Assembly: GCA_019057475.1 (NCBI GenBank)
Contig: DXJO01000005.1
Span: forward strand, 1 to 19,886
Reading direction: 5' to 3'
DNA length: 19,886 nt
Source: Candidatus Thorarchaeota archaeon
GTDB taxonomy: Archaea; Asgardarchaeota; Thorarchaeia; Thorarchaeales; Thorarchaeaceae
Part shown: one piece after another, positions 1,911 to 17,235 of the stretch
Numbering within the stretch: position 1 is the first letter of the stretch
Layout: each line of letters starts with the position of its first letter
The notes under the pieces: model-generated
Told to the model about the DNA's origin: nothing
What the model saw: the letters and a program-made list of their open reading frames with translations, nothing else
Databases searched by the model: none
Made by a program: the position numbers and the translations under genes

Positions 1911-1970
1911 CTACATCTGCTTCTGTTGTCTGTACGGGGGATTCTCTGCATCAAAGAGCTCTCTCGCCTG
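1911..1970 (-). repeat. Repeat copy 1: 3' end of an unknown gene (QARELFDAENPPYRQQKQM*)
   Basis: 1911-1946 matches 17167-17202 at 31/36 nt; encodes the same peptide as copies 2 and 3. Confidence 0.8.
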
Positions 1971-2096
1971 AACCACACGGAACAATTATGAATGATTTTC
2001 CAACATGACTTGAGTGGCGTGTAGTCACGGACGGCCAGTAAGCGTGTTGTTGCAGTTAACGCACGTCACCTCTTTGTCCTCAACCACTGGATAGCA

Positions 2097-2123
2097 CCTG
2101 CTCGATCAACATGATAGAGCAGG
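2097..2123. terminator. Stem-loop CCTGCTC-G-ATCA-ACA-TGAT-A-GAGCAGG, possible terminator or operator
   Basis: 7+4 bp stem with one mismatch between convergent genes; pyrimidine tract follows on the + strand. Function is inferred. Confidence 0.3.
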
Positions 2124-2142
2124 CTCTCTCTTTCTTAATGTG

Positions 2143-2639
2143 TCAACTAGACTCGAATTCACGTTGTCGAACTACTGATAGAACGTTTAATGTGTGAAAG
2201 ATTGGTAATGGAATTGATACAGCGTATGTCCATCCAACTGATACGAGAAAAAAGCGGATTGTAGAAATGCCTGTATGATTAGAGCTAATCCAATTACACG
2301 CAGAATCGATCTCTTTGTAGTTGTACCTTTTATGAACCGCGATTGGGTTATAATGACTAAGATATAGAGTGGTATAAACAGGACACCGAAGAGCAAAGTT
2401 GGAATGGAAAGGAATTCAAAAAACGTAGAGCTATAAGGGCCTGCTATTGTGCTACCATTCTCATGAACTATTGCCCAAAATACTGCGAACACACTGTACC
2501 GTATGTAAGAATTGTCGAGATGATTAAGGCGTGAAATCTCTAGTGAATGTGGTACAAACAGAGTCACAATAATGAGAATAGCTAAGAATCTAGAAGTCTT
2601 CCTCGCTTCCGATCTATCTTGAGCGACTATGTCAGACAT
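2143..2639 (-). CDS. Hypothetical membrane protein (~4 TM), frameshifted at the homopolymer 2248-2253
   Basis: C-terminal part of the 402 aa ORF starting MSDIVAQ. Adding one base to the run gives a hydrophobic end AFFLVSVGWTYAVSIPLPIFHTLNVLSVVRQREFESS* with stop at 2143. Confidence 0.6.
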
Positions 2640-2749
2640 GGACCGTGCCCTATCGAACATATACTGATCTGCCCAATAATCTTGCGGATTGCAGGAAACA
2701 CCTCGTGGGAATGACAAGCAATGAACTATGCACTCTGTACCTGAACAGT

Positions 2750-3395
2750 TCAGGACCAGTCTCCCCCCTTTCGAACTGGCCAGTCTCTTGAGATTATCGA
2801 TAGCCTCTTTCGTTGCTTGTGCTTTCGGGAAGGCCTTACTAATGGCATAGACTCCGAGCACATTGACCATCCATGCTGAGTCATGCTTGTATTCATGGTC
2901 GTCAAGTGCTCTCTTAATCTCTTGGCCAACTCTGGCATCACTCGAATCGTATATCCCTGCAGCACAGTAAGCAAGCAGTACAGACTTTTGTACCTCCTCT
3001 CGACCGTAGTATTGCGTGATTATCATGAACACGACCGCGTCATCAACAGGGTCCGCCTTCATTGGGAAGTTCTCAGGGTCTGCCCCCATCCGCTTCGTTA
3101 TCCTTGAGGGGAGTGACATTGTGACCCTTCTAGCATCGACCGACTCTGTTTCAGGGTCAACCTCACAGAGGTAGCCCGAGAGGCGCAGGTACATCCCAGT
3201 GCCAGTGGCGATAGGGTGGATCTGTGTCGGAACAATGCATAGGTAACGCTCAGTAAGGTCTTCATCCCACTGAACCTTCTCGTATGGGTCGTCGTGGTCC
3301 AAGTCCTCAATTGCACTCATGGACATGGTTGCGAGTGTGTGCAGGAGGACCAGGTTGGGATCCATTTGGTCCCGTTCACCTTCCAGCTGGTCCAC
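2750..3395 (-). CDS. Hypothetical soluble protein (N-terminal half of the 402 aa ORF, probably a separate gene)
   Basis: GC-richer than the membrane part. Removing one G from the G6 run (2763-2768) ends it at ...LASSKGGDWS* (TGA at 2750). The linker in the fused frame looks non-coding. Confidence 0.55.
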
Positions 3396-3477
3396 TTCAT
3401 TCTCATTTTCTGCATTTTCACAGTGTTCGTACCAAGGGATGTCTCATTGCCTATATCGGATTAATCGAACTCGGGTG

Positions 3478-15096: not shown

Positions 15097-15783
15097 TTGC
15101 TAGACCATGTAGATGCATTTACATTTGACGACTTCAACACATTGCGCTATCAGGCAGAGGAAGAGGAGGACATCATCTATGTTGTTCTCGGAGCCCTTCA
15201 GACCCGAATCGATGTAAATGAGAACAGTTTCCTAGCAGCGTACGCTCAAGCTGATAGAGTCTACAGGAGAGAGCTGGCTGAAACCCTGCGGGAATCACTC
15301 TTGGACGACGTAATACTTGAGGTAGTGGCAACACTTGGGCTGAAACTCAGCAGAGATTTCATCAAGGGAGTTGTCGACCAAGCGCTCAACTCAAGGCCCT
15401 TATGCTGGTATGCTGATGCAGCAAAGACACTCTTGACCTTGCGAGAGAGGGGCTATAGGCTAGGCCTGATCACGAACACGCACTGGCGCCTCCCAGAGAG
15501 TCTAAGAACTGAGTTTGACCGATACTTCTCAGTCATCTCCATTTCTCATGAGCATGGATACGCGAAACCACATCCATCTATCTTCTTGAATACTCTTCAG
15601 AAACTCAGTGTCACCCCAAATCGATGTGTGCACGTGGGTGATGACCCAGTTGCGGACATTCAAGGGGCCAAAGGAGTGGGGATGAGGACCGTATTTGTGA
15701 AGAGAAGTGAGGACCATGCCGATGCTGATATCACCGTGTCACAACTTAGTGATCTGCTCTCGCTATTACCCGGTGAACCTTAA
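15097..15783 (+). CDS. HAD-superfamily hydrolase (subfamily IA)
   Basis: FTFDDFNTL (motif I variant), LITN (II), KPHPSIF (III), HVGDDPVADIQGA (IV). TTG start after GGTGA. Confidence 0.92.
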   Translation: MLDHVDAFTFDDFNTLRYQAEEEEDIIYVVLGALQTRIDVNENSFLAAYAQADRVYRRELAETLRESLLDDVILEVVATLGLKLSRDFIKGVVDQALNSRPLCWYADAAKTLLTLRERGYRLGLITNTHWRLPESLRTEFDRYFSVISISHEHGYAKPHPSIFLNTLQKLSVTPNRCVHVGDDPVADIQGAKGVGMRTVFVKRSEDHADADITVSQLSDLLSLLPGEP

Positions 15784-15898
15784 TGAACCGCTGAGTGGAA
15801 TGACTACTAAAGAAATGAACTGCTATGGAAGAAGAGGTGCTCAATAATGTGAGTACGGCAATCCCCCAATCGCTTTAACACCGCCGCTTCTACTTCTC

Positions 15899-15925
15899 CA
15901 GATGTATAGTTCAACTATACATCTG
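15899..15925. repeat. 27 bp perfect palindrome CAGATGTATAGTT-C-AACTATACATCTG
   Basis: 13 bp perfect arms with a 1 nt spacer; overlaps the end of repeat copy 2. Confidence 0.95.
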
Positions 15926-15980
15926 CTTCTCTTGTCTGTAAGGCAGGTTCTTAGGACCGAGAATCTCCTTGGCCATGACT
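15913..15980 (-). repeat. Repeat copy 2 (AKEILGPKNLPYRQEKQMYS*)
   Basis: 15922-15957 matches 17172-17207 at 32/36 nt. Confidence 0.85.
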
Positions 15981-16053
15981 GGTCTACATGGATTGTGAAT
16001 GGCAGTACTTTCTTATGTTCAGTATTCCATCAACCGAACTCGGTGGCCGGAGA

Positions 16054-17007
16054 ATGGATATCGGCAAACTTAAGACAGTCCCAATTCGAGAAGTCTGGAA
16101 GAATGAACCGAGAGATTTCAACAAGTGGCTTGCAGATAATATTGACATCTTGAGTGAGGCTCTGAATCTACAAATTCCACTTGTCCCTCCAGACACCGAA
16201 GCTTCCGTTGGCTCCTTCTTGGCTGATCTTGTAATAGAGGACGAAAGCGGGGATAAAGTAGTTATAGAGTGCCAATTAGAGGAGAGCAATCACAAACATC
16301 TTGGGCAAGTAATAACCTACTTGACCAACCTAGATGCGAGAACCGCCATCTGGATATGTGCGAACCCAAGACCTGAGCATGCCCGTGCCATCGCTTGGCT
16401 GAATGAAGTTTCACCAGCTGATACGTACTTCTATTTGGTGAGAGTGCAGACAGTCCAAATCGAGGACTCTCCACCAGCTCCGCTGTTCACAGTAATATCT
16501 GGTCCGAGTGAGGAAACTAAGCAAACTGGACGCGCCAAGGAAAAAGACGCCGAAAGACATCGTAGGAGGCTCGATTTCTGGACTCAATTATTGTCCAAGA
16601 GTCAATCAACGAGCGATTTATTCATGAGTATTTCGCCTGGAAAGTTTGGCTACATTCAGAAGAGCGCAGGTTGGGCAGGAATCACATACAAGTACGTTGT
16701 ATCTTACAGGTACATTGGTGTTGAACTCTACATTGACACACGGAACCCAAATGACAATAAATCGATATTCGACATGCTGAAGGAGAAAAAAACCGCGATC
16801 GAGGACGCTTTTGGCGGCTCACTAGCGTGGGATTACGAGGACGGCAGACGCGCGTGCAAGGTCAAATGGAGAAGAGATGATGAAGGTCTTGGAGCGGAAG
16901 AACATTGGCCTAGCCTCCAAGAAGAGATGATTCAAGCGATGACCCGCCTACACGAGGCAATCGATAAACATCTCCAACAGACTATGCGTGCCACCAGTCA
17001 AACATGA
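16054..17007 (+). CDS. NucS-like PD-(D/E)xK endonuclease domain plus DUF4268 protein
   Basis: IREVWKNEPRDFNKWL, VGSFLADL...VVIECQL...HKHLGQVITY and C-terminal FWTQLL...VELYID...IFDML..KK.AIE.AFG.L.W motifs. Likely start MDIGKL at 16054. Confidence 0.88.
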   Translation: MDIGKLKTVPIREVWKNEPRDFNKWLADNIDILSEALNLQIPLVPPDTEASVGSFLADLVIEDESGDKVVIECQLEESNHKHLGQVITYLTNLDARTAIWICANPRPEHARAIAWLNEVSPADTYFYLVRVQTVQIEDSPPAPLFTVISGPSEETKQTGRAKEKDAERHRRRLDFWTQLLSKSQSTSDLFMSISPGKFGYIQKSAGWAGITYKYVVSYRYIGVELYIDTRNPNDNKSIFDMLKEKKTAIEDAFGGSLAWDYEDGRRACKVKWRRDDEGLGAEEHWPSLQEEMIQAMTRLHEAIDKHLQQTMRATSQT

Positions 17008-17166
17008 CAATCAGTGAAAAGATGTGCGACACCTACGGGCATGTTATAGGTCCTATTAATATCTACCAATCTATCAAGTTGCAGAAGATAGAACATGACT
17101 GATAGGTCAATAGTGAGAAGAAAGAAGATGGAGAGAAGACTGGCCTCTCTCAAACCAGAATGAGAA

Positions 17167-17235
17167 CTACTTCTGCTTCTCTTGCCTGTAAGGCGGATTC
17201 TCAGGACTCGGAATTTCTCTGGGCAGCTATGATTG
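17167..17235 (-). repeat. Repeat copy 3 (REIPSPENPPYRQEKQK*)
   Basis: Matches copies 1 and 2 (31/36 and 32/36 nt cores). Confidence 0.85.

Follow-up and report, generated by a model that had tools for sequence, protein, structure and literature searches.

Displaced copies of an acyl-CoA dehydrogenase gene end between gene cassettes in Thorarchaeota, consistent with gene-end replacement and cassette shuffling

Repeats in the window

The stretch of DNA analyzed here (the window) is the entire 19,886-nt contig DXJO01000005.1 of the Candidatus Thorarchaeota archaeon assembly GCA_019057475.1 (contig C28 of genome G000; 3.34 Mb in 56 contigs). Its accessory genes are punctuated by a short repeat that was traced to the 3' end of an acyl-CoA dehydrogenase (ACAD) gene located on another contig, C26; copies of this gene end are called tails below. 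Read on the minus strand, the window starts with the 3' end of a tyrosine recombinase gene and continues with a chain of small open reading frames (ORFs), a MatE transporter gene, tail 3 with its 3' trailer, a DUF4268 gene, tail 2 with a palindrome, a HAD hydrolase gene, and a remnant of a fourth tail. These are followed by approximately 13 kb of accessory genes (NosD-like, a fragment resembling an insertion sequence [IS], GmrSD, HNH, and unknowns), the tail of another gene, tail 1, and a NosD-like gene.

The original prediction for this window described three co-oriented copies of a gene's 3' end as att scars and interpreted them as an integron-like hotspot that collects single genes at a protein-coding att site. 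The three copies are genuine. A 26-mer from tail 2, searched with up to two mismatches, gave three matches in the window, all on the minus strand, where none were expected (200 shuffles), and a repeat search of the window returned a family of 58 nt or longer with 71-79% identity between copies and spacings of 14,006 and 1,250. Translation gave the minus-strand peptides that had been claimed. Tails 2 and 3 enclose exactly one gene (DUF4268, 15988-17007), and each tail is preceded by a plus-strand gene, namely the NosD-like gene (718-1878) for tail 1, the HAD gene (15097-15783) for tail 2, and the DUF4268 gene for tail 3.

Tail 1 (1911-1973, minus strand, nhmmer E 7e-12) ends in VQARELFDAENPPYRQQKQM and the stop codon and is degenerate, having lost the ATG and being without the terminator hairpin. 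Tail 2 (15918-15979, minus strand, E 6e-17) reads VMAKEILGPKNLPYRQEKQM and onward, with the 5' edge GTC ATG G preserved, and tail 3 (17167-17222, minus strand, E 9e-14) ends in REIPSPENPPYRQEKQK and the stop codon and is decayed at the 5' end. Beside tail 3 lies a copy of the 3' trailer (17115-17166, minus strand), with an 8-bp hairpin at 17131-17151 and a pyrimidine/T run; it is 83-92% identical to the trailers of the C26 tails, including that of the working gene itself. The hairpin appears in the predicted fold with an energy that is unexceptional against shuffles. The fourth tail is a 15-nt remnant (15000-15014, minus strand, GAGAAGCAAATGTCA) matching the end of the tail at C22:12826 and the sequence downstream of it.

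In place of the normal end of tail 2, there is a perfect 27-nt palindrome (15899-15925; fold -15.5 kcal/mol, z -5.3). Its 17-nt core, GTATAGTTSAACTATAC, has five copies in the genome (one on C22, two on C28, and two on C51), each beside the end of an ACAD tail; the second window copy, 14917-14933, is about 67 nt downstream of the tail remnant. Among relatives, the core was found once each in G001, G003, and G008, which is too rare to judge it as a general recombination site. The HAD gene is bracketed by 24-nt direct repeats (14910-14933 and 15897-15920), of which the right one belongs to the 27-nt palindrome.

Parent gene

An iterated nhmmer profile applied genome-wide found 21 copies of the repeat: 13 on C26, three in the window, two on C51, and one each on C8, C22, and C42. 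The 13 copies on C26 are all on one strand (102026-133365) and extend over approximately 31 kb directly behind ACAD. In the alignment, the 5' edge of the repeat is a conserved GTC ATG G and its last codons are CAA GAG AAG CAG AAG TAG; many copies run on into a shared hairpin and T-run. The sole copy in frame with a long ORF, C26:102026, lies within C26:100850-102088 (412 aa), the product of which carries four acyl-CoA dehydrogenase Pfam domains and is encoded by the single ACAD gene of the genome; the other 20 copies are in short frames. With the only in-frame copy forming the end of ACAD, it is close to certain from sequence that the repeats represent displaced copies of the final 21-22 codons of this gene (IVMGREIFGPEYLPYRQEKQK), with its stop codon and terminator. 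The statement that the window holds no full parent gene was correct, and the intact parent and further copies that the prediction expected elsewhere are present on C26 and across the genome. The repeats were also checked as ends of an IS or of a miniature inverted-repeat transposable element (MITE) and as a multicopy gene family, and they are none of these.

The coding origin proposed from synonymous differences among the three copies was confirmed on a larger set. In 23 near-complete displaced tails compared with their consensus, differences fell at the three codon positions in the numbers 64/63/154. Single-base codon changes were 108 synonymous and 54 non-synonymous, against a neutral expectation of 18.5% synonymous; the displaced tails are related and the counts non-independent, which makes the p-value indicative and the result one of pattern only. 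This pattern indicates that the tails diverged while under translation. In a relative, G014, a tail lies beyond an intact endonuclease gene; it specifies the same 20 residues as the working tail, with 11 synonymous and 0 non-synonymous differences between the two.

Cassette array behind the parent gene

The units between tails on C26 are 0.4-9 kb long with 0-6 ORFs, and many have a single ORF. Their cargo comprises flavodoxin, an MFS transporter, beta-helix proteins, a 3068-aa ORF, and several unknowns, mostly convergent with ACAD. Taking all loci together, most slots hold flavodoxin, MFS, beta-helix, HAD, DUF4268, GNAT, and other genes, not endonuclease genes or pseudogenes. The tail score drops with rank from the gene (rho -0.64, p 0.018), an age gradient. 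No PF00589 recombinase was found in the 31-kb array or elsewhere on C26. Tandem integrative elements leaving att scars, each unit with an integrase of its own, were considered and rejected; across the 0.4-9 kb units, neither an integrase nor an integrase remnant was found in any.

Relatives were surveyed in 81 genomes of the family, of which 41 have an ACAD ortholog and 32 have the endonuclease family described below; many ACAD loci end at a contig break. ACAD-linked arrays were found in G001, which is of the same genus (four tails on C85 and 10 on C47, chiefly with single-ORF cassettes), and in G014 (four tails), G010 (three tails), and G017 (two tails). Six other relatives have the working tail alone, within 20 kb or less. 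G000 and G001 have five cassettes in common (83-94% identity), the order of which differs between the two genomes, and C26 carries one cassette twice. The view of the locus as an accretion array of tail-punctuated cassettes was thus upheld, for C26 and not for the window itself, and comparison between strains showed that both the content and the order of the cassettes differ.

Two junctions were mapped. Similarity on the far side crosses the tail beyond the cargo and ends directly after GAGAAGCAG or after TAGTTCT, and similarity on the near side starts inside the tail, after about CTGCCC. From these positions, the moving unit consists of the trailer, the cargo, and the 5' portion of the distal tail, and exchange takes place in the conserved 3' core. 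The cassette edges fall in the conserved last ~20-35 nt of the tail.

Chimeric end of the ACAD gene

The ACAD genes of G000 and G001 are 93.3% identical over nt 1-1140 and 75.6% identical over nt 1141-1218, and in the latter part, they are no closer to each other than G000 is to other genera. Mismatches are dense from ~nt 1122 to 1219, with the last 20 nt identical, and the divergent tract begins ~55 nt upstream of the 5' edge of the repeat (nt 1177). In one or both lineages, the working end of ACAD has been exchanged for that of a distant allele.

Endonuclease gene behind ACAD

LAGLIDADG_3 (PF14528) matches were found directly behind ACAD in G014 and G008, in ORFs of 606 and 737 aa that are 45% identical to each other and both above the Pfam cut-off. 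An ORF of this endonuclease family lies 57-125 nt behind ACAD, convergent with it, in at least five of the 41 ACAD genomes (G014, G008, G043, G064, and G058), and G071 probably has one as well. In G014, the intact 606-aa LAGLIDADG_3 ORF occupies the slot between T0, the host gene end, and T1, the first displaced tail. In G017, the first slot has a 47-aa endonuclease remnant, the only one found by tblastn. As a side observation at this locus, a gene for a 740-aa HerA-like ATPase follows the ACAD-adjacent LAGLIDADG ORF in G008 (C51 13-2235, locus L030).

Origin of the window and its other genes

Three plus-strand genes of the window have the geometry of the cassettes on C26 and in G001, with starts 9-87 nt from the 5' edge of the next tail. 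The HAD hydrolase gene (15097-15783, PF00702, E 3e-21) lies between tail 2 and the tail remnant, the DUF4268 gene (15988-17007, PF14088, E 3e-26) forms a single-gene cassette between tails 3 and 2, and the MatE transporter gene (17265-18692, PF01554, E 4e-19) has its start 43 nt away from the 5' edge of tail 3, and no tail was found on its other side. In G011, a DUF4268 homologue with 63% identity is located 10.6 kb behind ACAD, its relative orientation being the same, and the only nearby tail there is a doubtful, decayed one. This homologue fits an origin of the window cassettes in an ACAD array. Tails 2 and 3 sit in strain-specific DNA; window 2057-19600 is mostly without a counterpart in congeners except for short multicopy elements.

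Tail 1, which the NosD-like gene (718-1878, plus strand) precedes, has a different history. Window 1-2056, including tail 1, is 92% identical to G001:C194 and G004:C65, and in G004 the block runs directly into sequence that is found in G000 from C21:107104. Because the block is conserved in G001 and G004, tail 1 is an old fossil fixed in the genus, present in three congeners. The synteny extends 84 nt past tail 1 to position 2056, and tail 1 as an active boundary was rejected. The break is at the 5' edge of the displaced tail of a second gene (2025-2054, minus strand, ending in CVNCNNTLTGRP and the stop codon). This second tail family, (Y)HCNNTLTG/DRP before the stop, has four short-frame copies in the genome (C10:316, C21:109266, C33:948, and the window).

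The possibility that the window is a variant of the C26 array in another strain, or a piece that is missing from it, was rejected; C26 is contiguous across its array and has only tails in common with the window. The window is an ectopic fragment of the ACAD array system without the parent gene, and not the hotspot itself. Of the integron-like hotspot at a coding att site that had been predicted, the gene-end copies and the cassette array stand, and the placement of the hotspot in the window, the att site, and the integrase are unsupported. Regarding a tRNA or other RNA target, ARAGORN found none in the window or six flanking loci, and Rfam found nothing.

An integrase had been anticipated beyond the right edge, and a tyrosine recombinase gene does straddle it. 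The C-terminal 87 codons (19623-19886, minus strand) continue at C29:257212-258326, the last 116 nt of the window being an exact reverse-complement overlap with C29:258211-258326. The joined ORF is 420 aa long (PF00589, E 1.5e-23), with a C-terminal zinc ribbon and a Lys/Glu-rich tail. A second copy, split between C50 and C51 and 94-95% identical to the C29/C28 copy, is not next to tails, and similarity between the two copies ends at the stop codon. A search of five congeners, among them G001 with at least 15 tails, gave no close ortholog (best 39% identity). No att-like pair was found, as no direct repeat is shared between 12 kb of the C29 side and either the window or C49. The edge recombinase was not assigned to tail formation because it has no close ortholog in the five congeners searched and no paired repeat and because the big array has no recombinase.

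Several further repeats were noted in the ~13-kb accessory stretch. Direct repeats of 94 nt (8488-8581 and 10648-10741, 87% identical) lie in two small minus-strand ORFs and flank a GmrSD-like gene (8627-10387), as if this gene had entered a host gene and a segment had been duplicated in the process. A multicopy element of ~360 nt (12786-13144) has a counterpart with 97% identity in G004, and several copies with 70-80% identity occur in G009, G011, G012, and G013; the ORF at 12857-13222 has no Pfam match and presumably represents the N-terminus of an IS4/IS5-type transposase, which it resembles. A 57-nt repeat (14587-14643) is also present at C42:70269, at C36:113, and in at least six relatives, often within ~1 kb of a copy of the 12846-13136 element (own C42, G004, G008, G011, and G013). 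The N-terminal 136 codons of a 402-aa ORF (2994-3388, with 5417-5516 nearby) recur at 86-92% identity on C22, C42, C25, and C20. On C42, these codons are followed by a segment that lies 2 kb upstream in the window, beyond an HNH_3 gene (4938-5366) and a 420-aa ORF, and the layout of 2994-3388/5417-5516 is permuted and mosaic. With the flank similarities to C42, C20, and C22 permuted in this way, 3389-5445 (the 420-aa ORF and HNH) as a simple endonuclease insertion was rejected. A high-copy repeat of ~157 nt at ~40 contig ends of G000, found also next to the tail-1 locus at the end of G001:C194, probably represents an IS or MITE end at which the assembly breaks.

Interpretation and alternatives

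Gene-end replacement with cassette shuffling in Thorarchaeota appears well supported by these comparisons. The last ~22 codons of ACAD are replaced repeatedly, each old end staying downstream with its terminator, and cassettes of one to a few genes lie between the old ends. In the proposed mechanism, the LAGLIDADG homing endonuclease encoded behind ACAD would cut sensitive alleles, like the WHO elements of yeast discussed below, and repair would copy the foreign, synonymously different end and a cassette from the donor. The old tail would serve as the right-hand homology in this repair, and arrays would therefore grow at the gene-proximal end. The tails would then provide portable homology for swapping, deletion, and duplication of cassettes. 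The window would be an array fragment (MatE, tail 3, DUF4268, tail 2, HAD, remnant, ~13 kb of other genes, and tail 1) that moved from the ACAD locus by rearrangement, and its tails are molecular fossils and not an active att site. The position of the endonuclease gene and the precedents lean slightly towards the endonuclease as the driver, with cleavage as a prediction.

Several observations weigh against this explanation. The native tail that replacement should have left behind was looked for, and any displaced tail of G000 is at most 82% identical to the working tail of G001. G000 has no PF14528 match and no homologue of the endonuclease in C26 or the window, the sole relative being a partial ORF on C18, and in G008 and G058, no displaced tail was detectable behind the endonuclease gene, where the WHO model requires tail homology. 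Most slots hold unrelated cargo and not endonuclease genes or their remains, and the model has no account of how cargo enters. Homing alone cannot account for the tails at loci without the ACAD body (the window, C51, C22, C8, and C42). The codon counts carry the non-independence mentioned above.

One alternative is integron-like site-specific recombination, in which a recombinase encoded elsewhere would act on circular cassettes at the 3' core of the tail, with the tail as the analogue of attC and the ACAD end as attI. The compact, often one-ORF cassettes reordered between G000 and G001 are in keeping with it, as are the edges of the mobile unit inside a core of at most 35 nt, which is integron topology, and the conservation of the core in non-coding displaced copies. 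Tails without ACAD would be easier to explain if any tail can be a site, and a tyrosine recombinase gene is co-oriented with the tails at the right edge. However, C26 is without a PF00589 gene, the edge recombinase reaches at best 39% in five congeners though G001 is rich in tails, and its second copy (C50/C51) is away from tails, with no att-like pair. In addition, the two mapped right-hand junctions are ~10 nt apart, the tails are non-palindromic, and the chimeric divergence of ACAD already begins ~55 nt upstream of the repeat, a pattern not expected from an att crossover within the repeat. Site-specific recombination is therefore considered unlikely. The repeat could also be a working unit, namely a micro-ORF of 19 aa (MGREIFGPENLPYRQEKQK) that has its own terminator, or a regulatory or terminator module located next to accessory genes. 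Retention of the ATG, the stop, and the hairpin with T-run in many copies would agree with this, but the ATG is the ACAD codon Met-20, copies are truncated at either end or miss the start or stop (tails 1 and 3 of the window; C26:113196, 125110, 132315, and 133322), the start codon of a divergent gene is 11 nt away in the window, leaving no room for a promoter, and Rfam finds nothing. A working unit is hardly credible on these grounds.

Plain homologous recombination needs no dedicated enzyme. One ancient duplication of the ACAD end would have been followed by import of DNA (left crossover in the ACAD body and right crossover in any tail) and unequal exchange, with the endonuclease as a passenger. 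This accounts for the sharp 5' edge common to all tails and the coding signature, the chimeric end with a conversion tract reaching the gene body, and the absence of integrases and the existence of arrays without endonuclease (G000 and G001); crossovers would also be expected in the best-conserved stretch, the 3' core and trailer. It gives no account of why one gene end is a hotspot across genera, nor of the occurrence of one endonuclease family at the exact spot in at least five genomes, among ~90 family matches over 3-Mb genomes, and it leaves the ectopic tails unaccounted for. Recombination of this kind as the whole explanation is judged improbable.

Beyond gene-end replacement, the observations raise the tentative and somewhat doubtful possibility of an integrase-free gene-capture platform in Thorarchaeota. 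A homing endonuclease would repeatedly break the end of a single housekeeping gene, and the retired ends would become attC-like portable sites through which single-gene cassettes could be taken up, rearranged, passed between genomes, and placed at new loci, the window among them. The retired tails that lie away from their parent, beside the tail fossils of another gene, bear on how cassettes spread. For annotators, a caution is that such tails can be misread as att sites of integrative elements.

Comparison with known systems

Each step of the proposed model has a published precedent in WHO, WHO10, and mobile endonuclease open reading frames (mORFs). With every homing event, a WHO element gives yeast FBA1 a new 3' end and moves the previous one downstream, where the displaced fragment provides homology; the 3' part of FBA1 thus evolves chimerically. 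WHO10 copies that sit at other loci contain pieces of FBA1 as well as 3' fossils from other genes (PMC7282813). The mORFs of fungal mitochondria (Allomyces atp6; Glomus atp6, atp9, cox2, and nad3) bring a foreign C-terminus and leave the native one downstream (PMC3630166).

The ACAD loci resemble WHO at FBA1 of Torulaspora/Lachancea (Coughlan et al. 2020, PMC7282813; Osborne et al. 2026, bioRxiv 10.64898/2026.08.13.744650) in having an intact housekeeping gene followed by co-oriented fragments of its own 3' end (on C26, full-length ACAD and then 12 displaced tails), and a 3' end that differs between close strains much more than the 5' part does. In at least five relatives, though not in G000, a LAGLIDADG-type endonuclease gene lies just behind the host gene, as in WHO. 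The newest unit is nearest the gene, with the displaced fragment as the recombination homology, and the ectopic WHO10 insertions with 3' fossils of the host and of other genes are like the window. The differences are that the host is an archaeon and not a yeast, that ~22 codons are replaced versus ~140 in WHO, that the endonuclease is not a relative of the intein/zinc-finger HO as far as tested, that the slots hold mostly transporters, HAD, DUF4268, beta-helix, and a 3068-aa ORF versus endonuclease genes and pseudogenes, and that the cassettes here are reshuffled. In the mORFs, the endonuclease ORF likewise comes with a foreign C-terminus of the host gene and the native duplicate lies downstream, whereas these are single insertions without cargo genes in organelle genomes, and arrays are found here.

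Integrons, which occur in archaea as well (Ghaly et al. 2022, PMC9668308), are also comparable. The ACAD arrays share with them a layout of compact cassettes in series, many with one ORF and each closed by a repeat. Growth at the proximal end, strain-variable order, and edges in the conserved core of the repeat are shared as well. By contrast, there is no IntI beside the array, the tails are co-linear, coding-derived direct repeats and not attC hairpins (the sole fold being the small trailer hairpin), and the cargo is mostly convergent with the anchor gene and has no common promoter. Clusters of attC sites without an integrase are known as CALINs. Rhs and contact-dependent inhibition (CDI) systems of bacteria also show C-terminal displacement, with orphan tip arrays (PMC2935791). 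As at ACAD, old ends are pushed aside by new ones and collect downstream along with small passenger genes. What is displaced in those systems is a variable toxin tip, and selection favors variety of the end itself, whereas the ACAD end is conserved at the protein level.

Full-text literature searching found no description of such a gene-end and cassette system in archaea. Homing elements that replace gene ends have been described only at the nuclear FBA1 gene of yeasts and in fungal mitochondria, and what they leave there is a graveyard of endonucleases. An archaeal version of this architecture, in which dozens of unrelated genes of accessory and defence type move as cassettes, would therefore amount to gene capture without an integrase. 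If the gene-capture platform is real, the closest archaeal relatives of eukaryotes would have arrived independently, by a second route, at an integron-like system, through a mechanism akin to the ancestry of yeast mating-type switching.

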